A stretch of DNA of 64,000 bases from an uncultured Thiothrix sp. (GTDB lineage Bacteria > Pseudomonadota > Gammaproteobacteria > Poriferisulfidales > GCA-002705445), in contig CACJPG010000002.1 of the NCBI GenBank assembly GCA_902595225.1, positions 1,151-65,150 of the forward strand, given 5' to 3'. The notes beneath the pieces were generated by a model, which was not told the origin of the DNA, ran no database searches, and was given only the letters and a program-made list of their open reading frames with translations. The position numbers and the translations under genes are program-made. Position 1 is the stretch's first letter. Each line of letters begins with the position of its first letter. Positions 988-53,940 of the stretch are shown here, in pieces.

Positions 988-3455
988 AATAATTTTTCAA
1001 GCTCTAATTCTTCTTCCTTAGATTTACTAATTTTATTTTCTTTACTAAATGTTTTTGGAACATTTTCCTTTCTAAAAACTTCTGTAATAGAATTTTTTGA
1101 GTCTGGAGAGGCCAATAAACCATTTTTACTATCAATTTTAGCGCTTACTAATCCATCTGGCTCCTCAAGATCTGATTTTGGAGTTCCTCGTAATGCAGTT
1201 TTCATATAGTCAATCCACATTGGTAAAGCCGCCGAGCTACCAAATTCTTTTTTTCCTAAAGAAGAGTGATCATCGAATCCCAAAAAGGAGACCGTAACTA
1301 TTTCTCTGTTAAAACCACTAAACCAAGCATCTTTTTGGTCATTAGTAGTTCCAGTTTTACCTGCAATATCAGATCGCTTTAAAACTTTTGCTTTTTTTGC
1401 AGTTCCGTATTTAACAACGTCTTTCATCATACTAACCATCAAATACACATTTCTTGGATCAACAGTTTGAGAAGCAAATCGAGGTAAACCAGCTTTATCC
1501 CTGAGCTCTGAAATTTCTTCGACTGAACTTGCTGAGGGGAATTGTAAAGTGTCTAGGCTGACATAATCACAAGGGTTGCCACAAACCCTTATAGGATTCT
1601 CCACATATATAATTTCATTATCTCTAGTTCTTACTTGTTCAATAAGATAGGGCTCAATACCATAACCACCGTTTGAGAAATAGGCATAAGCTTCAGCAAG
1701 CTCAACAGGTGTAATCTCTCCACTGCCAAGAGCTAACGTTAAATCTTTTGGTAATTTTTCACTATTGATTCCAAAATTTTTCATAAAATCTAAAGTGTAT
1801 TTAATTCCGATAGAGTCTAACAACCTAATTGATATCATATTTTGTGATTTCGCTAGACCATACCTAAGTCTTGTTGGCCCATAAAATTTCCCACCATAAT
1901 TTTTTGGTCGCCATGCACCGCTAACTGTGTTTTCCTTGAAAACTTTAGGCGCATCATTAATAATTGAGGCAGGAGTATAACCCTTATTAAGAGCTGCAGA
2001 ATATATAAATGGCTTAAAACTTGAACCAGGCTGACGCTTTGCCTGTGTTGCTCTATTAAATTTACTTAACCTAAAATCGTAACCTCCTGACAAAGCAGAT
2101 ATCGCTCCGCTATTAGAACTCATCGAAATTAATGCACCATTAACATTAGGAACTTGAGATAATCCCCATTTATTTTTTGTTTTTTTTATGCGGATCACAT
2201 CTCCAATTGAAAGAATTTTATTAAAATCCCTGATTCTTTTCTTATAATTCACATCATAATATTGAGACTTAATTAGATTATCGCTCAATGCAATATCTAA
2301 TAATTGATTTTCTTTTGAAAAAACTGTTAGTTTATTTTTTTCTACATTCAATATAACTGCTGGAACATTATTATTTATTGAATAATAATTACCTAAAAAT
2401 TTCTTAATATTTTTAATTGAAATATCTAAATCATATTCAAGTTCTGAATTTAATAATGCACTATAACTAATTTTAGACTCAGGGCCTCTATATCCATGCC
2501 TTATATCATATTTTTCAATATTTGTTTTTAATGATTTTTGAGCAACGGCCTGAAGGTTACTGTCAATTGTTGTGAATACATCATACCCAAGTGTATAAGC
2601 TTCACTCCCAAACCTTTCTTCCATTTCAGCTCTGGCCATCTCAGCAACATAAGGCGCCTTAAGCTCAATACTTACCTTGTTAAGCCTTGCAGTAACCGGA
2701 CTAAGATACGCTGTCACATAAGAATCTTTGTCTATAAAATTATTTTCTGACATTCTCCTTAACACATAGTCTCTTCTTTGTAATGCTCTCTTCTCGTTGG
2801 CGATTGGATTGTATCGTGATGGTGCTTTTGGTAATCCCGCGATCATTGCGACTTCGGCTAGCGTAAGCTCAGATAATCTTTTTCCATAATAAACTTGTGC
2901 TGCAGCAGCAACACCATAAGCTCTATGCCCTAAATAAATTTTATTCATATATAATTCAAAGATTCTTTCTTTACTTAAATTTCTTTCCATTTTATAAGCC
3001 AAAAGAATCTCTCTAAGTTTTCTTATTATCTTCTTCTCTCTGGTTAAATAAAAGTTCCTTGCTACTTGCATTGTAATTGTGCTTCCGCCTTGTGTGACTT
3101 TTCCTGTTGAAATAAAACTTTTAAAAGCACGAAGCAGCCCAAAATAGTCAACGCCATTATGCGAGTAAAATCTATTATCTTCTGCAGCAATAAAAGCGTT
3201 CTTTAAATCATTTGGTATTTCTTTGAAAGTAACGGGAATTCTTTTTTTCTCCCCATAAACTGCTATTAATTTTTTATCTTGGGTATAGATTCGCATGGGA
3301 ATTTGCATTTTCATATCTTGTAGCTCTTCAACAGTTGGTAAGCTACTAGCCAAAACAATATATAATGTTATTGAGGAGAATAACAAAAGCCCAAGGATAT
3401 AATAAATAGGCTTTAAAGCTTTTTTAAAAAATCTACTCATACTTGTTGGTGGCAC
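984..3455 (-). CDS. mrcA: penicillin-binding protein 1A (bifunctional transglycosylase/transpeptidase)
   Basis: N-terminal TM anchor. GT51 motifs EDNRFYSHNGVD and GGSTITMQ. Transpeptidase SxxK (GSSFKP), SxN (KSQN), KTG (GKTGTT). Confidence 0.93.
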   Translation of the reverse strand: MPPTSMSRFFKKALKPIYYILGLLLFSSITLYIVLASSLPTVEELQDMKMQIPMRIYTQDKKLIAVYGEKKRIPVTFKEIPNDLKNAFIAAEDNRFYSHNGVDYFGLLRAFKSFISTGKVTQGGSTITMQVARNFYLTREKKIIRKLREILLAYKMERNLSKERIFELYMNKIYLGHRAYGVAAAAQVYYGKRLSELTLAEVAMIAGLPKAPSRYNPIANEKRALQRRDYVLRRMSENNFIDKDSYVTAYLSPVTARLNKVSIELKAPYVAEMARAEMEERFGSEAYTLGYDVFTTIDSNLQAVAQKSLKTNIEKYDIRHGYRGPESKISYSALLNSELEYDLDISIKNIKKFLGNYYSINNNVPAVILNVEKNKLTVFSKENQLLDIALSDNLIKSQYYDVNYKKRIRDFNKILSIGDVIRIKKTKNKWGLSQVPNVNGALISMSSNSGAISALSGGYDFRLSKFNRATQAKRQPGSSFKPFIYSAALNKGYTPASIINDAPKVFKENTVSGAWRPKNYGGKFYGPTRLRYGLAKSQNMISIRLLDSIGIKYTLDFMKNFGINSEKLPKDLTLALGSGEITPVELAEAYAYFSNGGYGIEPYLIEQVRTRDNEIIYVENPIRVCGNPCDYVSLDTLQFPSASSVEEISELRDKAGLPRFASQTVDPRNVYLMVSMMKDVVKYGTAKKAKVLKRSDIAGKTGTTNDQKDAWFSGFNREIVTVSFLGFDDHSSLGKKEFGSSAALPMWIDYMKTALRGTPKSDLEEPDGLVSAKIDSKNGLLASPDSKNSITEVFRKENVPKTFSKENKISKSKEEELELEKLF

Positions 3456-6420: not shown

Positions 6421-9400
6421 ATGGAAGATGATAGAAAAAAAATAACCGGTCTTTATGACGAAAGCTTTGAAAAAGACAGCTGTGGTTTTGGTTTAATTGC
6501 CAATATCGATAATAATCCAAGTCACTGGCTTATCAATACAGCCATTACAGCACTTGAAAGGTTAGCACATAGGGGTGCTGTGGGAGCTGATGGAACATCT
6601 GGAGATGGATGTGGAATACTTTTCAAGATACCGGAATTCTTTTTTAGATCTATTGCAAATGAAGAAAAAATAAACATAGCAAAAAACTTTGCAATAGGAA
6701 TGTTTTTCCTTAATGTTGATGCTGATAAAAGAAAATCTTCTATAAAAATAATCGAAAAAGTTATATCGGAGAGCGGATTTTCATTGGCAGGATGGAGAGA
6801 TGTACCAACTGACAAGAGCATTTGTGGTGAAGATGCTCTAAAAACATTACCTTATATTGCTCAGGCATTTATTAATCCACCAGAAAAATTAGACCCTAAA
6901 GATATTGAGTCAAGATTATTTGTTATTAGAAGGAAGATTGAAATTTTAGTCTCAAAAGAGAAAGATGAAACTTTCTATATAACCAGTTTTTCATCCAAAG
7001 TAATTTTATATAAAGGCATGATAATGCCAAAGCACCTATCTAAATTTTATTTAGACTTATCAAACGATAAACTCGAAACTTCTTTGTGTGTTTTTCATCA
7101 AAGGTTCTCCACAAATACAACACCTCAATGGAGTTTGGCACAGCCATTTAGAATGCTAGCTCATAATGGTGAAATAAATACAATTAGAGGAAATAGAAAT
7201 TGGTCTCAAGCCAGATCAAGTATTTTTAAGACATCCAAAATTCCTGAGTTAAATGAGCTTAGACCTTTAGTCTCAATGAAAGGTTCTGATTCGAAAAGTT
7301 TAGATAATATGCTAGAGGTTCTTGTAACTGGAGGAGTAAATATTTTCAAAGCTATTAAATTACTTATCCCGCCAGCTTGGAAAAGTATTCCTGAAAGCGA
7401 CTCTGATTTAAAAGCCTTTTACGAGTATAATGCAAAACATATGGAATCTTGGGATGGGCCTGCTGGCATAGTTTTAACTGATGGCAGGTATGCCGCTTGT
7501 GTAACTGATAGAAATGGATTGCGTCCTGCAAGATATATTATCACTGATGATAGGCATATAACTGTTGCGTCAGAAATCGGTGTATACGAATACGACGAAA
7601 AGAATGTCATTGAAAAAGGAAAGCTTGGCCCTGGCCAAATCATAGCGGTTGATACATCTGATGGAAAAATATTATATTCAAGTGATATTGACGAAAAACT
7701 TAAAAACAGATGTCCCTATAAAGAATGGATGGACACTGGCGCTGAATCAATGCGTAGAATCATTCCCGATAAATTTCCAGAATTAGAGCTTTTTGACGAA
7801 GCTAAAATTAAGCAATACGAAAAAATGTTTAATATGACCTATGAAGAGAAGGATCAAATATTGAAGCCCTTGTCTAAATTAAGTCAAGAGGCCATTGGTT
7901 CTATGGGAGACGATACACCTTTCCCAGTTCTCTCCGATGAGATTAGATCATTATATGACTATTTTAGACAACAGTTTGCACAAGTCACAAATCCACCCAT
8001 AGACCCAATACGTGAGAGCAACGTGATGTCTCTAGAGACATACCTTGGCCCTGACCTTAATGTCTTTGAAGAAGGTTCAAAGCATGCGCATAGGCTAACA
8101 ATAGAGTCGCCAATTTTGTCCTATAGAAAATTTAGACAACTACAAGAACTCAAAAATAAGAAATTTACGTATAAATTTCTCGACCTAAATTATGAAAACA
8201 AAATTACTTTAAAAGAAGCAATAGAAAATCTAACAAATGAAGCTTTGAAGGCTGCAAAAGAAAACAAGGTGTTTCTAATTCTTAGTGATAAAAAAATACA
8301 AAAAGGCAAATTGCCTATTCACTCACTTCTTGCAACTGGGGCTGTTCACCATGCATTAATTAAAAATGGTTTAAGAACAAAAGTTAATATTATTGTTGAA
8401 ACTGCTACAGCACGAGACTCTCATCATTGTGCAACTCTGATTGGTTATGGTGCAACCGCAATTTACCCTTATCTAGCATATCAATCATTAAACGACATGA
8501 TTATAAAGAAAACAGAAGATAATTCTGAGTTTTTTGAGGCAACAAGAAATTATAGAAAAGGAATAAACAAAGGTTTATATAAAATTTTATCAAAGATGGG
8601 TATTTCAACCATTGCAAGTTATAGAGGTTCACAGCTTTTTGAAATAGTTGGTTTGAACCAAGAGATTGTAGATTTGTGTTTTTGTGATACGACAAATAGA
8701 TTATCTGGAACAACTTTCATCGACTTACAAAAAGATCAAGAAAAACTAGCAAAAAATACTTGGAGCCAAAGAAAAGACATAAAACAGGGTGGATTACTAA
8801 AATATGTTCATGGAGAAGAATTCCATGCATATAACCCAGATGTCGTTAGAACTTTGCAAGAGGCTGTAAAAAGTGGTGATTATGAGGATTATAAAAAATA
8901 TAGTGATATTGTAAATTATAGAGAAAAAATGGTTATTAGAGATATGTTTGACTTGAAAAGCTCAAAAGATCCTATACCTCTAGATGATGTAGAACCAATT
9001 GAAGATATTCTTCGAAGATTTGATTCAGCTGGTATGTCTCTTGGAGCCCTATCTCCTGACGCTCATGAAACTCTCGCACAAGCTATGAACAAGATGGGTG
9101 GCAGGTCAAATTCTGGAGAGGGTGGAGAAGATCAAAAAAGATTTAACACAGACAAAAATTCAAAAATCAAACAAGTCGCGTCCGGTAGATTTGGTGTGAC
9201 TCCACATTATCTGGTTAACGCTGAAGTCATTCAGATAAAAATTGCCCAAGGAGCTAAACCTGGTGAGGGCGGACAACTTCCTGGAGATAAGGTTGATAAA
9301 CTTATTGCTACTCTAAGATACTCAAATCCAGGTATAACATTGATATCACCACCACCTCATCATGACATATATTCTATTGAAGACTTGGCACAGCTTATTT

Positions 9401-10893
9401 TTGATTTGAAACAGGTAAATCCTGAAGCTCTTGTATCAGTGAAATTAGTTGCTGAGGCTGGAGTTGGGACTATTGCTGCTGGCGTAACAAAAGCTTATGC
9501 TGATTTGATAACAATCTCTGGATATGATGGTGGAACTGGGGCAAGTCCTTTATCCAGTATCAAGTATGCTGGAAGTCCATGGGAAATGGGCTTGTCTGAG
9601 ACACACCAAACATTAAGAGCAAGTAATTTGAGAAAAAATGTAAGACTTCAAGCAGACGGTGGTCTAAAAACTGGTTTAGATGTAATCAAAGCAGCTTCCC
9701 TAGGTGCTGAAAGCTTTGGTTTCGGCACGGGCCCAATGATTGCTATGGGTTGTAAATATCTACGAATATGTCATTTAAATAATTGTGCAACAGGTGTCGC
9801 TACTCAAAATAAAGTGCTTAGAAAATATCATTTCATAGGTAAGGATGAAATGGTAATGAATTATTTTAAATTTATTGCTCAAGAAACTAGACATATATTG
9901 GCATCTTTAGGTTTTAGAAAGTTGTCAGACATAATTGGTAAGACAGATATATTAGTAATTAAAAAAATTGATGAAGGAAAATTAAAGAATTTAGTAATTG
10001 ATCCTATTATATCTGATGCGAATGTAGATAAAGATATTGCTCACACATGTCAGGTCAAAACAAACGAACCATGGGATAAAGCAGAATTATCAAAAAAAAT
10101 AGAAAGTGATACAAAAACAGTTATAGCAGAAAAAATTGGTGGTGAATTTAGCTACTCAATTAAAAATACTGATCGATCAATCGGTGCAAATATCTCAGGT
10201 ATTATTGCAAAAAAATATGGTAACTACGGAATGTCCGAAAATCCTTTGATACTTAACTTTAAGGGAACTGCTGGGCAAAGTTTTGGGGTTTGGAATGCTG
10301 GGGGACTTCATCTTAATTTAGAGGGTGATGCAAATGATTACGTTGGAAAGGGAATGGCATCTGGGGAAATTGTTGTTCGCCCTCCAAAAAATATAAAATA
10401 TAAGACAAATGAGTCAGTAATAATAGGAAATACATGTATGTATGGGGCAACTGGTGGGAAGCTTTATGCTGCTGGTATTGCTGGAGAAAGGTTCGGAGTA
10501 AGAAACTCTGGCGCGACGGCAATAGTTGAAGGAGTAGGAGATCATGGATGTGAGTATATGACAAATGGAACAGTAATAGTGCTTGGTAAAACAGGGGTTA
10601 ATTTCGGAGCTGGAATGTCTGGAGGATTTGCAATTGTTTTAGATGAAGAAGGAACTTTTAAAAATAAATATAATCCTGAACTTGTAGAAGTCATCAAAAT
10701 TGATAAAAAGAAATATCCATTCCAAGAAACTTTTCTTAAAGAATCAATTGCTGATTATGTTGAAAAGACAAATAGTAATTGGGGAGGAATTTTATTAAAA
10801 GATTTTGATAATTATCTAGAAAAATTCCTAATTGTTAAGCCAAAAGCTATTAGTATTGAAGAAATATTCAATAAAGATAGCGTTGCGGCTTAA
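6421..10893 (+). CDS. gltB: glutamate synthase (NADPH) large subunit
   Basis: 1490 aa. Propeptide then the amidotransferase Cys (DSCGFGLIANI), FMN/Fe-S central domain, C-terminal GXGXG beta-helix (GTAGQSFGVWNAGG...). The N-terminus is enterobacterial-type. Confidence 0.96.
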   Translation: MEDDRKKITGLYDESFEKDSCGFGLIANIDNNPSHWLINTAITALERLAHRGAVGADGTSGDGCGILFKIPEFFFRSIANEEKINIAKNFAIGMFFLNVDADKRKSSIKIIEKVISESGFSLAGWRDVPTDKSICGEDALKTLPYIAQAFINPPEKLDPKDIESRLFVIRRKIEILVSKEKDETFYITSFSSKVILYKGMIMPKHLSKFYLDLSNDKLETSLCVFHQRFSTNTTPQWSLAQPFRMLAHNGEINTIRGNRNWSQARSSIFKTSKIPELNELRPLVSMKGSDSKSLDNMLEVLVTGGVNIFKAIKLLIPPAWKSIPESDSDLKAFYEYNAKHMESWDGPAGIVLTDGRYAACVTDRNGLRPARYIITDDRHITVASEIGVYEYDEKNVIEKGKLGPGQIIAVDTSDGKILYSSDIDEKLKNRCPYKEWMDTGAESMRRIIPDKFPELELFDEAKIKQYEKMFNMTYEEKDQILKPLSKLSQEAIGSMGDDTPFPVLSDEIRSLYDYFRQQFAQVTNPPIDPIRESNVMSLETYLGPDLNVFEEGSKHAHRLTIESPILSYRKFRQLQELKNKKFTYKFLDLNYENKITLKEAIENLTNEALKAAKENKVFLILSDKKIQKGKLPIHSLLATGAVHHALIKNGLRTKVNIIVETATARDSHHCATLIGYGATAIYPYLAYQSLNDMIIKKTEDNSEFFEATRNYRKGINKGLYKILSKMGISTIASYRGSQLFEIVGLNQEIVDLCFCDTTNRLSGTTFIDLQKDQEKLAKNTWSQRKDIKQGGLLKYVHGEEFHAYNPDVVRTLQEAVKSGDYEDYKKYSDIVNYREKMVIRDMFDLKSSKDPIPLDDVEPIEDILRRFDSAGMSLGALSPDAHETLAQAMNKMGGRSNSGEGGEDQKRFNTDKNSKIKQVASGRFGVTPHYLVNAEVIQIKIAQGAKPGEGGQLPGDKVDKLIATLRYSNPGITLISPPPHHDIYSIEDLAQLIFDLKQVNPEALVSVKLVAEAGVGTIAAGVTKAYADLITISGYDGGTGASPLSSIKYAGSPWEMGLSETHQTLRASNLRKNVRLQADGGLKTGLDVIKAASLGAESFGFGTGPMIAMGCKYLRICHLNNCATGVATQNKVLRKYHFIGKDEMVMNYFKFIAQETRHILASLGFRKLSDIIGKTDILVIKKIDEGKLKNLVIDPIISDANVDKDIAHTCQVKTNEPWDKAELSKKIESDTKTVIAEKIGGEFSYSIKNTDRSIGANISGIIAKKYGNYGMSENPLILNFKGTAGQSFGVWNAGGLHLNLEGDANDYVGKGMASGEIVVRPPKNIKYKTNESVIIGNTCMYGATGGKLYAAGIAGERFGVRNSGATAIVEGVGDHGCEYMTNGTVIVLGKTGVNFGAGMSGGFAIVLDEEGTFKNKYNPELVEVIKIDKKKYPFQETFLKESIADYVEKTNSNWGGILLKDFDNYLEKFLIVKPKAISIEEIFNKDSVAA

Positions 10894-15329: not shown

Positions 15330-15932
15330 TTAAAAAAACTTTTTATATCTTAGCCAAGAATATGTGCCAGTTATTGATAAAATTATTAATCCAAGGGTAA
15401 CAAGGTCTACAAGAGTTACTCCAAATGTTCCAAAAAGTCTACCAGAATGCAAATCAACAATTACTCTCTCATATGTTATTGTTTTACTTATACTTTTATC
15501 TTCAATTATTTTTTTAAGATTTCCTGGGAGTATATTTTCTTCTAAACTAATTTTTACATTCTTTGGGGTCTCAGTGTGGCCTAAGTCAATAATTTCTCCG
15601 CTAGAAGAAACAGTGATTATATGACCATCATACAAAATTACATAATTATCATTCTTTTTATAAGCAGCTCTTAATGTTGTTATATTATTTACAATTCTTT
15701 TTTCTTCAAAATATAAATTGTTATTACAGATTGAAATCCACTTTGAGCTGATTGGAGCAGATGATATTACACAAGGCTTGATTCCATAAACATTTTTTGC
15801 GAATGTGCTAGAAGCATAAGTTTGCCGTATTTTAAAATCTTCTGCATGCTGAAGTAAGGTTCCTGTGACTGATAATACCAATACAAAAAGAACTAAAACA
15901 ATACCTAGAAATCTATGAATTTTTATAATCAT
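15330..15932 (-). CDS. PepSY-associated-TM-helix-like membrane protein (half-size, 2 TM)
   Basis: N-terminal IHRFLGIVLVLFVLVLSVTGTLLQH and C-terminal DLHSGRLFG...LSITGTYSW resemble the paired His-containing helices of the PepSY_TM/PiuB/FoxB family. Confidence 0.6.
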   Translation of the reverse strand: MIIKIHRFLGIVLVLFVLVLSVTGTLLQHAEDFKIRQTYASSTFAKNVYGIKPCVISSAPISSKWISICNNNLYFEEKRIVNNITTLRAAYKKNDNYVILYDGHIITVSSSGEIIDLGHTETPKNVKISLEENILPGNLKKIIEDKSISKTITYERVIVDLHSGRLFGTFGVTLVDLVTLGLIILSITGTYSWLRYKKFF

Positions 15933-16018: not shown

Positions 16019-17011
16019 ATGAGTAATAAAATTCTTTTAAAAATTATTATTTTTTCTTTCAGCTTTCTATTAATTAGTTGTAATAATAATAGCAGCTACT
16101 TAATCTCTGGGAATGCTTTTGGAACAATTTACCATGTACAAATTGAGTCTGACAAAAGGGTTGATACTAGTAAAGTAAAGTTCAATATTAGCAATATAAT
16201 CTATAATATTGACGTTATAGCTTCAAATTATTCAGAAAGTTCAGAAATCTCCCGTTTTAATAATTTAAATAGCACAAATTTTATATTTATATCATACCAT
16301 TTGTTTGAATTACTCAAAAAAGCAAATCAAGTTAGTGACATAACAGATGGATACTTTGATATTACAGTTGGGGATCAGAAAATAAAGAAAGGCTTTTATA
16401 TAAATCCAATTGAGTATGTAAAGGGAAAGGATAGAGGCTTTAATTATAAAGATATCATTCTCTCAGAAGAGAGAAGATCAGTAAAAAAGAAGATGAAAAA
16501 TATAAATATTGATTTATCAGGAATTGCAAAAGGTTATGCTGTTGATCTAATAACAAATTATCTAATAAGCATAGGGATCAATAATTTTATAATTAATATT
16601 GGTGGAGAAATAAAAGCTCACACAGATAATGAAGAATATATAAAAATATCAATCGATGATCCCTCCAAAAAAAATCAATCTGTTGAAGATATATTCCTAA
16701 ATAAAAAGGCTATAGCGACATCTGGCACTTATCAAGACCATGTGGAGTATAAAGGCAATAAAATCAGTCATATAGTGAATCCAAAAAATCTTAAAAATGT
16801 TTCCGATCTCAGCAGACTTGTTGCAGTAATTCATGATAGTTGTGCAACAGCAGATGCAATTGCAACTGGCTTTATAGCCATGGAAGCTAATGACATTGTA
16901 AATTTTGCAAATGAAAAAGGTATTGCCTTAATGTTTCTAAGAGAAATCAACGGAGTTGTTGAGAAAAGATACTCAAAAAAGTTTATAAAATATTTATCTG
17001 AGAAAGATTAA
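16019..17011 (+). CDS. apbE: FAD:protein FMN transferase (flavin transferase), lipoprotein
   Basis: Lipobox LLISC. ApbE family blocks DLSGIAKGYAVD, AIATSGTYQDH, SHIVNPKN, ATADAIATG. Confidence 0.88.
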   Translation: MSNKILLKIIIFSFSFLLISCNNNSSYLISGNAFGTIYHVQIESDKRVDTSKVKFNISNIIYNIDVIASNYSESSEISRFNNLNSTNFIFISYHLFELLKKANQVSDITDGYFDITVGDQKIKKGFYINPIEYVKGKDRGFNYKDIILSEERRSVKKKMKNINIDLSGIAKGYAVDLITNYLISIGINNFIINIGGEIKAHTDNEEYIKISIDDPSKKNQSVEDIFLNKKAIATSGTYQDHVEYKGNKISHIVNPKNLKNVSDLSRLVAVIHDSCATADAIATGFIAMEANDIVNFANEKGIALMFLREINGVVEKRYSKKFIKYLSEKD

Positions 17012-17514
17012 ATCTTTGAAGCCAAAAACAATGATAATTTAGAGAGTTTTCTCATTGAATTAACTGACATTGTCGCACCAGATATATTTGCCAGTCTATT
17101 TGTTAGCTTATCCTTACTTTTTAAACTATTACCTCTTATCTGGTTTAAAAAGAAATCATATGCAACTTCTCCGCCATAGTTTTCACGGTAAACAAGAACT
17201 TTTGCATCTGATATTTTATTATTCTCTACAACATAACCTGTTGTTATAAATTCATGCTTTCCTATAGCTTCTAATATGAAGCCGACTTTATTACCATTCT
17301 TATAATATTTTATTGCTGGAAGATGATACGTATCCTTCAAAATGTCTTTTACTCCAGCAGCAACATCATCTTTCAAAATAATATACTTATGAAAGGGCAC
17401 TTCAGAAACACCTAGTGCTTGTTTTAGAAAATCGTCTTTATCCATTATTACCTTTTCAGCATTAATAGAAAAAGATAACGTTAAAAGATATATTGTTAAC
17501 AAAAATTTTTTCAT
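17008..17514 (-). CDS. secreted FMN-binding-domain protein (predicted ApbE substrate)
   Basis: Signal peptide MKKFLLTIYLLTLSFSINA. Flavinylation-type motif NISGATMSVNS as in NqrC/RnfG FMN_bind domains. Convergent 4-nt overlap with apbE. Confidence 0.75.
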   Translation of the reverse strand: MKKFLLTIYLLTLSFSINAEKVIMDKDDFLKQALGVSEVPFHKYIILKDDVAAGVKDILKDTYHLPAIKYYKNGNKVGFILEAIGKHEFITTGYVVENNKISDAKVLVYRENYGGEVAYDFFLNQIRGNSLKSKDKLTNRLANISGATMSVNSMRKLSKLSLFLASKI

Positions 17515-17599
17515 GATTAATTGTAATATTATTTAAGAATATTTTTCACTGTATAAAATTAAAATAAAATCTGTAAAAAACTTTTAAATTTTACAACTT

Positions 17600-17740
17600 A
17601 AAAAAAGGATGGCTAGTTAACGTCGAAGTTTAAATATTAAGAATGAAAAGAACAAGGAGAATTTCTTCAAATCATTCGTTTTAAAGTTTAGCTCTTACTG
17701 AGTGGAGGAGAAAAAACTAAACTTTATTTGTCAACTAGCC
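17600..17740 (-). ncRNA. structured RNA element: three-helix junction ending in a U7 tract (porin 3-prime UTR / complex terminator / candidate sRNA)
   Basis: Minus-strand helices: P1 is 11 bp (17740-17730 with 17621-17611). P2 is 10 bp (17726-17717 with 17691-17682). P3 is 6+6 bp (17677-17663 with 17652-17641). Two G-U pairs would be A-C mismatches on the plus strand. The tail is AUCC-UUUUUUU. Confidence 0.45.
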
Positions 17741-17784
17741 AAAACACGCCCTAATGTGTTGTTATTGTAAAATTATTATTATTC

Positions 17785-18990
17785 TTACCATACATAACCC
17801 ATACCGATATGTATTCCATCGGCATCACTTCCACCATCTGGGTTAGAGTATTCTTTATCATAGTAGTTCACTTTAACTACAGTATCTGTGCCCATAGGCC
17901 AGTAACTAATACCGTATTGCATTACAGTGTACATTTTCGAAACAGCGTTACCTGAAACAATAGAGTTGTTAATAAACACACCTAAGTTTCCAGTTCTTTT
18001 TGACGCTTCTAAGAATGTACCTTGTTGCTCGTCAAGTCCTGCTGCGAAAGCCGCACCAGATTCGTCTTTACCATCGAATTCAGCTTGAACGTGAATAGCT
18101 CTAACTTCAAAGCCATCACCAAATCCATATATTGCTGAAGCACCGTAAAGATCTAACTTATCAACGTTATCAGATGATACTTGAGTAAAGTCAGATTGAT
18201 GATTGTAGAATACAGATGCTTTTAAACCAGGGAAACCTGTATATGTAAGTCTACCTGTGTAAGCTAAGTCATTTGCAACAGCACTAGCTGATTTTTGACG
18301 ACCTGCTCTGATGTCCATAGCTGTTGTACCTTCAAGACCTTCAGAAACCATCAATTCAAGCATTATACCATTGTCTGATCTGTAAATAAGTTCAGCACCA
18401 CCAGACCACCATGTTGTAGGAATTAAGTACTTCTCTACATCATTTCTCTCAACACCATAAAATGTTGGTGGTTCATGGTTTTCATTCAAAATACCTACTG
18501 GCATAAGAATCACACCAAATCTTGTTTGTAAATTGTCAGTAAGATCAATTTCAACATACATTTGTTCTAATTCAACTTCACCAGGTCCTGATCCATCAGC
18601 TGTATCTTTTGCTAATGCGTGCTCTAATTCGAATTCAGATCTAAATCTTACTGTGTCAGAGTAGTCATACCCAAAGAATAAAACAAATCTATGAGCATCA
18701 AGTGATTTAGATTTTGCACCTGCATCGGTTTCAGTGTCGTTATAGTGTAATTCACCATATCCACCGAGTGTGATTTTAGAGAACTTCTTAGCTGCCTTTG
18801 CAATTGAAGATTGAGAAGCTTCCGCCATCTCACCCTGCATTTTTACAGCCGCTTTTAATTCATTAATTTCAGCTTTTAACTGCTGAATGGTCTCCATAGC
18901 AAGATGAACTTCTTCTTCAACATGCTCTAGAGTTTCAGCAAATGTTACTGGCGTAATCGCTAGTAAAGCTGCTAACGCTAATTTTTTCAT
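17785..18990 (-). CDS. outer-membrane porin with N-terminal coiled-coil segment
   Basis: Signal peptide ending FA-ETL, about 50 aa helical segment (IQQLKAEINELKAAVKMQ), then alternating beta-strand pattern with a C-terminal aromatic residue (GMGYVW). GC-richer codon usage than neighbours. Confidence 0.7.
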   Translation of the reverse strand: MKKLALAALLAITPVTFAETLEHVEEEVHLAMETIQQLKAEINELKAAVKMQGEMAEASQSSIAKAAKKFSKITLGGYGELHYNDTETDAGAKSKSLDAHRFVLFFGYDYSDTVRFRSEFELEHALAKDTADGSGPGEVELEQMYVEIDLTDNLQTRFGVILMPVGILNENHEPPTFYGVERNDVEKYLIPTTWWSGGAELIYRSDNGIMLELMVSEGLEGTTAMDIRAGRQKSASAVANDLAYTGRLTYTGFPGLKASVFYNHQSDFTQVSSDNVDKLDLYGASAIYGFGDGFEVRAIHVQAEFDGKDESGAAFAAGLDEQQGTFLEASKRTGNLGVFINNSIVSGNAVSKMYTVMQYGISYWPMGTDTVVKVNYYDKEYSNPDGGSDADGIHIGMGYVW

Positions 18991-19030
18991 TGTTATCTCC
19001 TAAAGATTAATTATTAATAATTAGAGGTGA

Positions 19031-19059
19031 ATAGTAATAGTTCTGAGAAGCATTTGCAA
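19031..19059 (-). promoter_or_regulatory. candidate promoter of the coiled-coil porin gene
   Basis: Minus strand TTGCAA (19059-19054), 17 bp, TACTAT (19036-19031). A strong SD AGGAG lies 6 nt before the ATG at 18990. Confidence 0.3.
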
Positions 19060-19233
19060 GTCTAAATAGGAATTATTCTCAACTAAAATAAATAACTTAT
19101 TAAAATCATATATTTATATTGAAAAAAACTTTATAATATTAGCAAATTATTGAGTTATTATATAAGAAAAATGCTTAAATTATGCGATTTTATAAAAATT
19201 TACTAAAAAAACTAAATTTCTAGATAGCCTAAT

Positions 19234-19683
19234 CTATTGGTCTAAACTAAGCTCTTTATTCAAATATTGACAAAAAGAATGATCTGAATCTAAAACTTCA
19301 GAGAAAGTCTTTCCATCAATTTTTTTTGCAAGACCAGCGTTTGTTTTATAATTTTCGAAATAGTCTTTTGTTGCTTTAGCGGTCTCTCTTTTAGCTTCTT
19401 CAATATTAGATTTGTTAAAAGATATCCTCATTTGCGCTGCACGCATACTATTGATTATATATTGTTGCTCATATGTCTGAGCTCGTTCACCATCACCCTC
19501 TTCATTTTTAGTAACGTTATTCATATATAAAAATAAACCCGAGCACCTTTCGGTTACATATATAAATATTTTTGGATCTTCTGCCTTTAGAATAACGTCA
19601 TTTAACGGCCTGAATCCATAAGCTATTACTTCACAAGATATAATTAGCAATAGCGACAAAGAAATATTATTTTTAACTTTCAT
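19234..19683 (-). CDS. hypothetical periplasmic protein
   Basis: The track ORF 19234..19755 is trimmed to the Met that begins a signal peptide (MKVKNNISLSLLLIISCEVIAYG). No family recognised. Confidence 0.55.
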   Translation of the reverse strand: MKVKNNISLSLLLIISCEVIAYGFRPLNDVILKAEDPKIFIYVTERCSGLFLYMNNVTKNEEGDGERAQTYEQQYIINSMRAAQMRISFNKSNIEEAKRETAKATKDYFENYKTNAGLAKKIDGKTFSEVLDSDHSFCQYLNKELSLDQ

Positions 19684-19790
19684 TAATATAAGTTTAACAT
19701 TTAGCACAAAATAGATATTGAAATTTTTTTGCTTACGAATAATAATCAGAATCATTAAGGAGTGGCAACAAAAAAAAGGATGGTGATATT

Positions 19791-19970
19791 TTGAAGAAAA
19801 TAATTCTTATTTTCACATTTATTTTTTCGATCAATGCTCATGCTCACACTTCAAGTGATATTTTCCATTTACATATCAATGAATACTTGATAGCTGCATT
19901 GTTACTCTCATTCGTTCTTGCCTTTTATTGGATTAGGACAATTTTAAAAAAAGGAGATATAAATGTTTAA
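19791..19970 (+). CDS. unannotated 59-codon His-rich membrane peptide (TTG start), overlapping the sodN start
   Basis: Below the ORF-track length cutoff. Translation MKKIILIFTFIFSINAHAHTSSDIFHLHINEYLIAALLLSFVLAFYWIRTILKKGDINV: signal-like N-terminus with AHA, four His in 12 residues, one TM. The stop overlaps the sodN ATG (ATGTTTAA). AAGGA lies 10 nt upstream. Confidence 0.4.
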   Translation: MKKIILIFTFIFSINAHAHTSSDIFHLHINEYLIAALLLSFVLAFYWIRTILKKGDINV

Positions 19971-20433
19971 ATTACCTAAAGCTTATGCACATTGCGATAT
20001 ACCTTGTAAAATTTATGACCCTGCCGCTGCTCAATATGCAGTTTTAAGTGTTATAAGAATAATTGATTTACTAAATGAAATTGAGGAATCCCCATCTGAT
20101 AAAAAAAACATTGCTGAAGTTTCTCGATTAATCTCACAAAAAGAAGAGCATGCCAAAATAGCTAAAAAAGAGGTTATAACAATTTGGGGGGACTATTTTA
20201 AAGAACCACAAATCACAAAATTTCCTGAGGTTCATGATTTAGTCCATAGTATTATGATGTCAGGCTCAAAGTCTAAACAAGCACTTGATCGGGCTAACGC
20301 AGAGGAGCTTTTAGAAAAGGTAAATAAATTTGCGGAAATTTTCTGGGCAACAAAAAATATCTCTACTGAGCATAAAATTTGCCCATACCCACCAAGTATG
20401 AAAGTTGTATGTCCAAAATTAGAAGATGCTTAG
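19963..20433 (+). CDS. sodN: nickel superoxide dismutase precursor
   Basis: Pro-peptide MFKLPKAYA followed by the Ni-hook HCDIPCKIYDP. About 156 aa four-helix type. Strong SD AGGAG 6 nt upstream. Confidence 0.93.
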   Translation: MFKLPKAYAHCDIPCKIYDPAAAQYAVLSVIRIIDLLNEIEESPSDKKNIAEVSRLISQKEEHAKIAKKEVITIWGDYFKEPQITKFPEVHDLVHSIMMSGSKSKQALDRANAEELLEKVNKFAEIFWATKNISTEHKICPYPPSMKVVCPKLEDA

Positions 20434-48406: not shown

Positions 48407-48429
48407 TAATTTATAGGAGAGTTATAAAG

Positions 48430-48585
48430 ATGGCAGGAATAAGCGTTTGGTCTTTATTACTGATTTTTGTAATTGTACTTTTGCTATTTGGCACAAAGAA
48501 ACTTAGGAATATTGGTGGCGACTTAGGCAGCGCAATAAAAAATTTCAAAAAATCTGTTAATGATGACAAACCAGATAAAGATTAA
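48430..48585 (+). CDS. tatA: twin-arginine translocase subunit TatA (unannotated in ORF track, 51 aa)
   Basis: [51 protein letters not shown], the canonical TatA TM plus FG-hinge plus amphipathic helix. SD AGGAGAG upstream. Followed by tatB and tatC. Confidence 0.9.
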
Positions 48586-52185: not shown

Positions 52186-53499
52186 TTAGAACATTGTTAA
52201 TATACCAAATTGGATAATTTCAACTTGGTTGTTCAAAGTACCAGAACCTAAAGCACTAATACCTGTACCATATTGACCATATGGGTCGTTTTCAACTTCG
52301 ATGTAAGATACATTCAATTCTGTTGAATCACCTAATGCATAGAACACACCAAATAATGTTGTGTCAGCACCAGTTTGCGCAGAGTTATCTGTAGATAAAC
52401 TTGTAGCATCCATATCTAACTCATCAGCTTCAGCATACATGAAACGGAAGTCAAAGTTTCCACCTGGCGCATATTTTCCAGAAATTAGGAAAGCGTCACG
52501 GTCAAATTTAACGTCTGTGTTAGCAGTACCACCTGCAAATGTTGAGCTACTAAAACCAAAGTCTTGTAACGCAGCACCTGGAGTTGTTGTGTTGTTAAAC
52601 TCATACTCTACGTTTTCAAACATAGCTGAAAGAGTCAAACTACCGCCATTTCCTAGGTCCATGATGTAACGACCAGCGATACGCCATGATTCAGCTTCAG
52701 AATCAGACATTGTTGCACCATCAAGTAATGATGCTGCCCATTCTTCGTGCTTCTGATAAGTTAAAGCACCCCAGAAAGGACCATCGCTGTATGCAATACC
52801 CATAGAGTAAATTACTGGGTCAGTTTCAGCACTTCCTCTAGCAGAAGTGTAGTCAGTACCATGATCAGCTGTCATAGCGAATCTGTATGATACTTTTCCT
52901 GTTGAACCCATGTATTGTAGGATTTCTTCCTGACGTCTGTTGAAACCCATGTTGTAGATACCACCGTAAGCACTGTAAGATACGAATGTTTGTGATCCAA
53001 AGTCTCCTAAGTTATAGAAGATTGTGTATGCACCAACAGAACCCATAATGTTTGTATGAGATGCAGAACCTGCGTCATACCATGGGTCTACCCAACCAGC
53101 GACCATTTCGTTGTATGGTAGTAACCAGTTAGCGAACATAATTTCACCAAAAGATCCTGAAATACCAACTTTTGAGTTACGGTTACACCAACCACCTGTA
53201 CCAGCGTAGTCGTTCATGTAAGTAAACTGTTCACAACGCCATGTTACTTTAAGGCCTTCGATTCCAGTGTCTACGAAACCAAGGAAACCAATGTTACCAG
53301 CATTACCATTAATAGCATGTTGGTCTGTATTACCATTAGCACCCTTTTCAATTATTTCGTAAGTATGGTTTTGCCAACCGTAGATTGTGATTGGATCCCC
53401 GTAAGGACCAACTCCACCACCACCCCAGCCTGCGTTTGCAGTAACAGGAAGCATGGCCAATGCTCCGGCTAGCATACTTGCTAAGATTTTTATTTTCAT
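52186..53499 (-). CDS. outer-membrane general porin (major, highly expressed type)
   Basis: Signal peptide ending TANA, Gly-rich N-terminus, amphipathic beta-strand periodicity, C-terminal Phe (GILTMF). GC-rich codon bias, own terminator, strong SD AGGAG. Confidence 0.75.
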   Translation of the reverse strand: MKIKILASMLAGALAMLPVTANAGWGGGGVGPYGDPITIYGWQNHTYEIIEKGANGNTDQHAINGNAGNIGFLGFVDTGIEGLKVTWRCEQFTYMNDYAGTGGWCNRNSKVGISGSFGEIMFANWLLPYNEMVAGWVDPWYDAGSASHTNIMGSVGAYTIFYNLGDFGSQTFVSYSAYGGIYNMGFNRRQEEILQYMGSTGKVSYRFAMTADHGTDYTSARGSAETDPVIYSMGIAYSDGPFWGALTYQKHEEWAASLLDGATMSDSEAESWRIAGRYIMDLGNGGSLTLSAMFENVEYEFNNTTTPGAALQDFGFSSSTFAGGTANTDVKFDRDAFLISGKYAPGGNFDFRFMYAEADELDMDATSLSTDNSAQTGADTTLFGVFYALGDSTELNVSYIEVENDPYGQYGTGISALGSGTLNNQVEIIQFGILTMF

Positions 53500-53940
53500 T
53501 AGGACTCCTAATAATTTTCTTAATTATTGTTTAAGAGGGATCTAAAAAAAACTAAAGTTCTTTCCCCCCACTAAATGCTATTAATATCTTATTTTTATAA
53601 ATCTGCTTAAACTTCATATGCAAATTTGAACATTCCGTTGTCCATAGCACCTCCCACATTTCTGCAGGATTTGTCAATTTTGACCAATCTTTCCGCCCAA
53701 GTCAATAAAAAAAGCACTTAAAAAGGGCAATAATGCATGTAAAATCAATCATATATAAGCGTTTACTAATTAAGTTTATTATTGATTACTTATATGAAGT
53801 TAGGTTGTTGAATAAGCGATAAAAATATGGCTAAAAAATTCCAATTGAAATTATCTATTATAGTCTTATTATTTGCACTTCTAAGTTATATAGATTATAT
53901 ATGTGTTATTACCATTTTTAAGGTTTACAAAAGATTCTCA

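Follow-up and report, generated by a model that had tools for sequence, protein, structure and literature searches.

A conserved three-way-junction RNA behind a porin gene of an uncultured gammaproteobacterium, with a putative role as leaky terminator and 3' untranslated region regulator

What occupies the 270 nucleotides (nt) that separate a porin gene from the gene downstream of it? The question is raised by a 64,000-nt stretch of DNA from an uncultured Thiothrix sp. (contig CACJPG010000002.1, positions 1,151 to 65,150), which was analysed whole and is called the window. Its GC content is 32.6%, a value in line with published SAR86 genomes (PMC3358033), and the host may be SAR86-like. On its minus strand the gene of a 401-amino-acid (aa) protein, assigned to the Porin_4/OprO-P-like porins from Pfam and homologues (porin 1, 17785-18990), is followed by the gene of a secreted FMN_bind protein (17008-17514), which lacks a Shine-Dalgarno (SD) site. 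An earlier examination of the letters alone, here called the sequence-only reading, gave the length of the spacer correctly and described in it three helices, two loops resembling the anti-SD tail of 16S rRNA and a run of seven U residues (U7). The element is a genuine RNA of ~158 nt at window positions 17757-17600 of the minus strand, and porin 1 is its parent gene, the RNA being found behind this porin in every true member. All positions below refer to the minus strand of the window unless another strand or locus is named.

The porin stop codon is followed by a linker (17758-17784) that is AT-rich in the alignment and contains repeated TAA. The RNA itself starts with a 5' box (17744-17757), whose sequence AUUAGGRCGUGUUUUGG is almost invariant and which forms a weak hairpin of 4 pairs, ACAU-UAGGGC-GUGU, with a loop unpaired at a probability of at least 0.93. 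The opening of the conserved block, an R-N-A-U-U motif, is suggestive of an RNase E site. Helix P1 then encloses the remainder. Its 5' arm UGGCUAGUUGAC (17730-17741) pairs with the 3' arm GUUAACUAGCCA (17610-17621) over 12 pairs, 5 of them G-C, and its 11-bp core joins GGCUAGUUGAC (17740-17730) with GUUAACUAGCC (17621-17611).

Two hairpins stand inside P1. The first, P2 (17683-17725, 16 pairs), had been read as a 10-bp helix with a 25-nt loop. The 10-bp base (17726-17717 with 17691-17682) holds, and ~5 further U-A/U-G pairs lengthen the helix and shrink the loop to CCUCCACUC (17708-17700), which is unpaired at a probability of at least 0.98. This apical loop carries the exact anti-SD core CCUCC and is invariant apart from one locus, L081 (loci are given by number where they must be told apart). 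The second hairpin, P3 (17641-17677, 10 pairs), is formed by 17677-17672 with 17646-17641 and a 6-bp extension, 17668-17663 with 17652-17647. These coordinates are also sound, while the upper register is ambiguous: ViennaRNA and RNAalifold favour the pair G17668-C17650, which turns the 10-nt loop of the sequence-only reading into a 7-nt loop, AUUCUCC. The apical loop, AUUCUCC(UUG) at 17662-17653, is unpaired at a probability of at least 0.92. The large loops of the two hairpins read UUUUUUCUCCUCCACUCAGUAAGAG and AUUCUCCUUG and contain CUCCUCC and UUCUCCUU.

P3 is joined to the 3' arm of P1 by the AU-rich, single-stranded junction J3/1, UUAAUAUUUAAACUUCGAC (17622-17640), in which CUUCGAC is almost invariant. 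A third copy of UAAACUU lies at 17632-17626. Directly 3' of P1 comes the tail, UCC then U7 (17600-17609), a putative intrinsic termination or 3'-end signal; U7 itself is 17606-17600 and is preceded by AUCC after the P1 core. The three helices, the P3 extension, the loops, the tail and the third UAAACUU were thus all recovered where the sequence-only reading had placed them. A G-U pair that it gave as 17619/17632 is a misprint for 17619/17732.

The fold is far more stable than its composition predicts. Using ViennaRNA, the minus strand gave a minimum free energy of -41.7 kcal/mol against -25.8 +/- 3.4 kcal/mol for shuffled sequences (z -4.63), and 0/200 shuffles were as good. The plus strand folds poorly (z -2.20, centroid -19 kcal/mol). 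In the minus-strand RNA both apical loops are predicted to be unpaired, with probabilities of 0.92-1.0.

Relatives were obtained from a porin-anchored scan of species-representative genomes, from contigs with porin homologues, and from an exact-pattern scan of Joint Genome Institute (JGI) metagenomes. The last scan produced 34 matches, ~14 of which were discarded as chance matches in unrelated coding or repeat DNA. Altogether 28 loci carry the element, in 17 distinct sequences. In every true case it begins 25-40 nt past the porin stop codon, on the porin strand, with a single copy per contig. The order porin, RNA, FMN_bind, ApbE, PepSY_TM is kept at all loci but L081. This exception has another promoter and another downstream gene and still retains the RNA, which is therefore tied to the porin. 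At L081 the porin promoter (2990-3060 of that locus) is a consensus TTGAAA-N17-TATAAT without a Fur-like box, a 651-aa gene without assigned function replaces FMN_bind, and the U-tail of the RNA is poorer.

Covariation among orthologous copies had been proposed in the sequence-only reading as a check on the helices, and it came out in their favour. RNAalifold returned the same 42-pair structure from the 17-sequence alignment. Standard pairs make up 98.6% of the 714 pair cells, against 30-52% when the pairing scheme is shifted by 1-3 columns. Compensatory double changes occur in 5 pairs, and 0/500 column shuffles reach the covariation score. Three of these pairs are in P1 (C-G/U-A, U-A/C-G, and A-U/G-C via G-U) and two are in P2 (A-U/G-C and G-C/A-U). 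The suggestion that the third UAAACUU could replace the 3' arm of P2 in an alternative fold failed here, as a P2 pair changes from G-C to A-U in L082, L088 and L100 without a matching change in that copy.

The alignment also decides the strand. There are 70 G.U cells and 2 A.C cells, and the RNA is therefore assigned to the porin-sense strand, as the sequence-only reading had it. We considered an RNA from the opposite strand that would display GGAGGAG and AAGGAGA loops and act as a CsrB/RsmZ-like sponge for a CsrA-type protein, since plus-strand loops would show GGA in hairpin loops. On that strand the 70 G.U cells become A.C, pairing falls from 98.6% to 89.1%, the U-tail is missing and only two GGA sites are found. 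Together with the weak plus-strand fold described above, the loss of pairing and the mere two GGA loops exclude the sponge.

P1 also resembles an 11-bp terminal inverted repeat, and the sequence-only reading had for that reason listed a miniature inverted-repeat transposable element (MITE), a mobile repeat comparable to a repetitive extragenic palindromic (REP) element, among its three explanations. Dispersed copies are a mark of such repeats. A covariance model of the RNA scored the element at 194.7 bits and anything else in the 64-kb window at 13.5 bits or less, so the window holds no second copy. The model had no matches beside 77 more distant porin genes (37-48% identity); with filters off it gave a weak match to L120 alone (12.6 bits, E 0.1). 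Viral contigs, phages and plasmids gave no match. Single copies always behind the same gene, and arms that change by compensatory and G.U substitutions as helices do, refute the mobile-repeat explanation.

The sequence is conserved as well. Compared with the window copy, the RNAs are 82-98% identical, while in the same genomes the porin coding sequences (CDSs) are 66-89% identical (nucleotide level) and the FMN_bind CDSs 63-92%; typical values are 92% for the RNA and 63-75% for the coding sequences. Invariant or nearly so are the two apical loops, the 5' box, the 3' strand of P3 and the CUUCGAC of J3/1. Judged by these identities the RNA is under stronger purifying selection than the genes that adjoin it.

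Inspection by eye, together with folding, revealed two divergent relatives, L120 and L123. In L120, whose porin is 45% identical, the linker between porin stop codon and RNA is just 9 nt, P1 is formed by GGCUAGUUAUUAU with AUAAUAACUAG and is followed by CUCCUCC, a different inner hairpin bears a loop with AAUCUCCCAAA, and a weaker U-rich tail comes after. In L123, whose porin is 47% identical, a 15-bp closing stem surrounds a single hairpin with the loop CAUUUCUCCUUAAAA. Since both retain a long closing helix and accessible CUCC loops in otherwise different sequence, these are the recurring features of the element. A GC-rich relative, L121, has a plain terminator hairpin in the same position. 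As a separate observation, a 5' box of the form AUUAGAA can pair with UUCUAA just past P1 in L081 (4351-4357/4496-4501) and L120 (1525-1533/1660-1669); in these two, the most divergent of the copies, the pairing would lengthen the closing helix across a bulge, and it does not occur in the main clade.

The sequence-only reading could match the element to no riboswitch or small RNA (sRNA) family, and databases agree. With the 4227 models of Rfam 15, only tRNA and a glutamine riboswitch were found in the whole window at the gathering threshold. For the region 17450-17850, E values up to 10 returned only a 7.9-bit chance match to Ysr35, outside the element. A literature search by sequence string found nothing relevant. 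An abundant non-coding RNA of SAR86 has been described by Dupont et al. (PMC3358033), and it is sited at a glycolysis/pentose-phosphate locus. The element is a candidate for a new Rfam family.

What, then, does the RNA do? One candidate function is termination. A U-rich tail follows P1 in 17/17 copies. In the sub-clade of the window, tail and FMN_bind are 85 nt apart. In five other lineages (L003, L082, L083, L087 and L096) the FMN_bind ATG is 8-30 nt past the tail, which leaves no room for a promoter, so FMN_bind would hardly be transcribed there except by read-through. This requirement would make the element a leaky terminator between a very highly expressed porin and a minor periplasmic protein, and a leaky or attenuating terminator is supported by the comparison as at least part of its function. 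The element has traits of an intrinsic terminator, a 12-bp P1 with 5 G-C pairs before UCC and U7, yet the place of the loop is taken by a 130-nt branched insert; it is a three-way junction and not a simple hairpin with a 3-8-nt loop.

A promoter for FMN_bind just after the U-tract, TTTACA-16-TATACA, had been suggested as well. Its two hexamers proved to be parts of two copies of a conserved direct repeat, GTTTTWTACAG, which lie ~22 nt apart between the U-tail and FMN_bind (17549-17581) and are kept in L001, L002, L098 and L105. Promoter-like matches in the region number 14, against 11.3 +/- 2.8 in shuffled sequences, which is no excess. The direct repeat may be a regulator-binding site.

Can termination be the whole function? 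Porin 2, the other porin of the window, ends as the sequence-only reading stated, in a plain 8-bp hairpin, and this hairpin is GC-rich, conserved and followed by U8. Because such terminators serve elsewhere in the genome, an elaborate design with a conserved sequence is not needed for termination alone, and termination alone cannot explain loops and junctions conserved at ~92%. The attenuating terminator of the sequence-only reading, one that sets the ratio of porin to flavoprotein, is supported by the tails and by the five short spacers, and it leaves the sequence conservation unexplained.

An element that acts purely in cis between the two cistrons would go one step further. It would combine leaky termination or attenuation with stabilisation of the 3' end, keeping porin high and FMN_bind low and protecting the abundant porin mRNA from 3' exonucleases, and its loops and junctions would contact a protein (a chaperone, a nuclease or S1) instead of mRNAs. 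The tails, the required read-through and the plain terminator hairpin that L121, a more distant porin-FMN_bind-PepSY_TM cluster, has in the same position all fit this explanation, and searches of the start regions of the window yielded no convincing target in trans. It does not account for a degree of loop and junction conservation that exceeds the needs of a terminator where a simple GC hairpin with U8 does the job, nor for L081, which keeps the RNA with a different downstream gene; moreover, the CUCC that recurs in the diverged L120 and L123 points to a sequence-specific partner. We regard a purely cis function as possible, though on balance somewhat doubtful.

A conditional attenuator, in which the junction binds a metal, a flavin or a protein and sets read-through into FMN_bind by way of P1, is harder to reconcile with the alignment. 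It would make sense of a three-way junction with conserved junction nucleotides, of a U-tract directly after P1, and of a downstream gene that adjoins the element and has no promoter of its own in several lineages, all at a locus related to metals and flavins. Against it, the strongest conservation is in the terminal anti-SD-like loops, which would be unusual for ligand pockets, and the number and sequence of the inner hairpins change in L120 and L123. No antiterminator is supported, the sole alternative pairing (through the third UAAACUU) having failed covariation; Rfam gave no match even at E values up to 10; and it is the porin, rather than FMN_bind, that the RNA accompanies in L081. Such an attenuator is unlikely.

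When would the RNA be made? The porin promoter (19030-19080) consists of a -35 element TTGCAA (19059-19054) and a -10 element TACTAT (19036-19031) with a 17-nt spacer. Two Fur-box-like operators, GAGAATAATTCCTATT (19080-19065) and cAGAACtATTACTATT (19045-19030), flank or overlap the -35 and -10 elements. The 10 orthologous porin promoters share the layout TGAGAATAATTCCTATTTA, cTTGCAAAT (-35), 7 nt, and GAGAACGATTACTATT including the -10 TACTAT. The two boxes are alike and both resemble the 19-bp Fur consensus; by hand count the -10 box of L083, ATAATCATTATC, agrees with the E. coli consensus at 16/19 positions. The operator motif GAGAAYRATTMCTATT occurs twice in the porin promoter and once more near sodN, the divergently oriented nickel superoxide dismutase (Ni-SOD) gene upstream of the porin. 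This third copy is a near-perfect palindrome, GAAAATAATTCTTATTTTC, at 19796-19814 of the plus strand, between sodN and the open reading frame (ORF) 19234-19755. With up to 2 mismatches the window contains 4 matches to the box, 3 of them at this locus.

A Fur-family gene (PF01475) stands immediately upstream of the porin in L082-L085, and none is in the window. For flavinylation clusters of the PepSY type, a connection with iron reduction and with repression by Fur has been reported (PMC8238504). On account of the Fur-like boxes, the Fur-family neighbours and this literature, we infer that porin and RNA are induced by metal limitation, probably of iron. An independent promoter or Fur box for the RNA was sought in the linker. 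The alignment shows no conserved box or internal promoter directly upstream of the RNA. A weak -10-like hexamer does stand in the linker at a constant offset; it was rejected as a promoter because many copies lack the key A2 and T6, and a match to the 7-1-7 Fur consensus, TAATAATAATTTTAC, was rejected as a Fur box because it is not conserved.

The invariant, accessible loops suggest what a partner might look like. Both contain UCUCCU, the complement of AGGAGA. At SD distance from the 61 annotated starts of the window, AGGAG precedes only porin 1 (UAGGAGAU, a strong SD site at 19001-18997), sodN (AAGGAGAU) and porin 2 (UAGGAGUC). A fourth AGGAG-led gene is the small tatA (UAGGAGAG), so that ~4/62 window genes have the site, and these are the four that the sequence-only reading had named. 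The mean predicted pairing energy of the 61 starts with the 16S tail is -4.7 kcal/mol. As far as the window starts tell, the genome is nearly devoid of SD sites; owing to the rarity of AGGAG, an anti-SD mimic would have a small, defined set of partners. The AGGAG-led mRNAs are probably the most strongly translated ones.

Three of these starts are candidate targets in trans. At porin 2 (52186-53499; site 53497-53509) the AGGAG (53509-53505) is followed by GUCCUAAUG (53505-53497) at the start codon, which is complementary over 9 nt to CAUUAGGRC of the RNA 5' box (17756-17748). The predicted duplex, -13.2 kcal/mol, ranks 10/305 among the comparisons and is not significant alone. The 5' untranslated region (UTR) of porin 2 (53497-53545), which includes AAUUAUUAGGAGUCCUAAUG, does not vary among six lineages whose proteins are as little as 60% identical (window and L124-L128). 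We note in passing that the SD site and start codon could be sequestered by a palindrome within it, AUUAGG-AGU-CCUAAU, and that the 3' half of this palindrome is complementary to the RNA 5' box. At the sodN start (19951-19972, plus strand) AAGGAGA is complementary to loop 2 and GUUUAAAU to J3/1. The match of the J3/1 segment AUUUAAAC to sodN positions +3 to +10 is 8, 11 and 9 nt long in three lineages; it is AU-rich, would be topologically awkward alongside the loop pairing, and is a lead only. At tatA (48430-48585, plus strand) the candidate site is the SD UAGGAGAG with the start codon (48415-48432). All the target matches, whether of the loops, the 5' box or J3/1, are short and within the range of chance.

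One such AGGAGA is that of the porin itself. In an autoregulatory arrangement like that of icaR, the loops of the 3' UTR would fold back on this site, limit translation and trigger decay of the mRNA. Strong SD sites are very few and the porin has one of them, to which each loop is complementary, and the element is physically linked to the porin mRNA in every genome. The complementarity is 6 nt, however, and nothing past the SD core covaries in the 5' UTRs of the window, L081, L082, L107, L120 and L123; by sequence such an action is indistinguishable from one in trans. As an explanation by itself it appears improbable.

The reading that we prefer combines a leaky terminator with a 3'-UTR regulatory RNA whose anti-SD-mimic loops act, either in trans or within its own mRNA, on the few messages led by AGGAG; we give it a probability of roughly 0.42. 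The porin transcript would yield the RNA as its 3' end. P1 and the U-rich tail would end most porin transcripts, presumably at U7, and a minority of transcription would read through into FMN_bind. The terminated 3' fragment, if it is processed and stable, or the 3' UTR still attached, would then act as a base-pairing regulator. The loops CCUCCACUC and AUUCUCC copy the 16S anti-SD and could occupy the AGGAGA sites of porin 1, porin 2, sodN and tatA. Production would follow release of a Fur-like repressor, most likely on limitation of a metal, probably iron.

Several results favour this combination over termination alone. The element has two properties of 3'-UTR-derived sRNAs, as it follows a stop codon immediately, in the same orientation, and is better conserved than its parent CDS. 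The proposal of the sequence-only reading that CU-rich loops of such an sRNA pair with SD sites thus gains from strand, position, invariant accessible loops and the scarcity of AGGAG; its targets are candidates.

Other results weigh against the preferred reading. The copies are closely related, with an effective number of 1.17, so that the covariation is real but thin, and P3 and the 5' hairpin show one-sided G-U changes only, without double changes. As an intrinsic terminator a 12-bp helix on a 130-nt branched insert is unusual, and 3 non-U bases precede U7; a scan with a simple terminator consensus did not call the element, the branched insert in place of a loop being the reason. The similarity of the window boxes to Fur boxes is moderate, and a scan with the E. 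coli consensus does not discriminate in AT-rich DNA. Complementarity between loops and targets is just 5-7 nt, essentially the SD core, and predicted target energies track those of the 16S tail (r 0.63 and 0.49). Among the 61 window starts a target search ranked gyrB, hemF, a Vut_1 transporter and the region upstream of recF highest, a chance-like outcome. With the porin 5' UTR the loops showed no pairing that reaches past the SD core or covaries. Finally, repression of nickel SOD under iron limitation has no obvious logic.

A bolder form of the preferred reading can be put forward for the clade, globally abundant, marine and streamlined in its genomes, in which SD-led initiation has been almost given up. 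A metal-responsive anti-SD mimic, released from the 3' end of the mRNA of a Fur-type-regulated porin, would compete with the 16S tail and so jointly control the AGGAG-led, highly expressed genes (two porins, Ni-SOD and TatA), and the branched terminator would also meter read-through into FMN_bind. With all its parts taken together, we think this joint claim rather unlikely.

The surrounding locus is arranged, on the minus strand, as porin (17785-18990), RNA, FMN_bind (17008-17514), a PepSY_TM protein (15330-15932) and an ORF without assigned family. After FMN_bind comes a convergent gene on the plus strand, the ApbE flavin transferase (16019-17011). A TACAAT hexamer ends 5 nt ahead of the FMN_bind ATG (17515-17535). 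Because of this hexamer and the missing SD site, the FMN_bind mRNA may be leaderless in the sub-clade of the window. The association of porin, FMN_bind and PepSY_TM reaches well past the RNA-bearing clade, to more distant gammaproteobacteria (L120, L121 and L122), and in L121 a hemerythrin gene lies upstream of the cluster. This suggests that the three genes are an old functional unit, possibly for periplasmic iron reduction behind a dedicated porin. Elsewhere in the window the glutamine riboswitch (RF01739, 6301-6352, plus strand) scored 60.6 bits against a gathering score of 35. It stands directly ahead of a 1490-aa ORF (6421-10893), which by its size is probably the large subunit of glutamate synthase. 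Cyanobacteria and marine metagenomes are the best-known sources of this riboswitch class, whereas the host here is a gammaproteobacterium.

Next to nothing is known of how RNAs regulate genes in the uncultured heterotrophs that dominate surface seawater. The element adds a well-supported new structured RNA, at an outer-membrane and periplasmic redox locus that is putatively metal-regulated. If its anti-SD-like loops do act on the few SD-bearing mRNAs, the element would reveal how the most abundant envelope proteins are co-ordinated where both regulators and SD sites are scarce, and it would offer marine metatranscriptomics a concrete marker of metal stress. Taken more modestly, it is a clear case of a terminator, branched and constrained in sequence, by which the ratio of two adjoining genes is set.

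How does the element compare with known systems? The 3'-UTR-derived sRNAs of Gammaproteobacteria, examples of which are CpxQ, SdhX, DapZ and MicL, are among the closest. Like them, the element comes immediately after a stop codon, on the strand of the gene, and is better conserved than the parent CDS; it would share the terminator of its parent mRNA, and its expression would follow the regulator of the parent. It differs in its terminator, a 12-bp helix closing a three-way junction, in having neither sequence similarity nor an Rfam match to them, and in a seed that would be a generic anti-SD mimic and not gene-specific.

The putative mode of action has its models in Firmicutes. IsrR, RsaE and RNAIII of S. 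aureus and FsrA and RoxS of B. subtilis pair C- or CU-rich loops with SD sites. The element likewise has several accessible, pyrimidine-rich apical loops complementary to GGAG-type sites, and it shares with IsrR and FsrA a link to a Fur-type regulator. Those sRNAs, in contrast, have their own Fur-controlled promoters and UCCC/CCCC motifs; here the loop sequences are CUCCUCC and UUCUCCU, SD sites are scarce in the gammaproteobacterial host, and it is the promoter of the parent porin that bears the Fur-like boxes. An anti-SD-like 3'-UTR motif able to pair with the SD site of its own mRNA is found in icaR of S. aureus; here such complementarity spans 6 nt only and does not covary with the porin 5' UTR.

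RyhB and PrrF (RF00057 and RF00444) share with the element a gammaproteobacterial host and possible induction on release of a Fur-like repressor, and they differ in that the element has neither a match to their Rfam models nor a Fur box of its own, and in that no targets among iron proteins were identified for it. In Streptomyces, s-SodF is said, in work of Kim et al. from 2014, to arise by processing of the sodF 3' UTR, with Nur as the Fur-family regulator, and to repress sodN. The parallels are the 3'-UTR location, the Fur-like parent promoter and an adjacent sodN whose start is partly complementary to the element; phylum, parent gene and sequence are unrelated, and the sodN pairing proposed here is short, AU-rich and putative.

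MicF and MicC, finally, are independent, divergently transcribed genes, whereas the element is co-linear with its porin. As with them, an RNA is encoded beside a porin gene, and the start of a second porin, with its 9-nt match to the 5' box, would be a plausible target.

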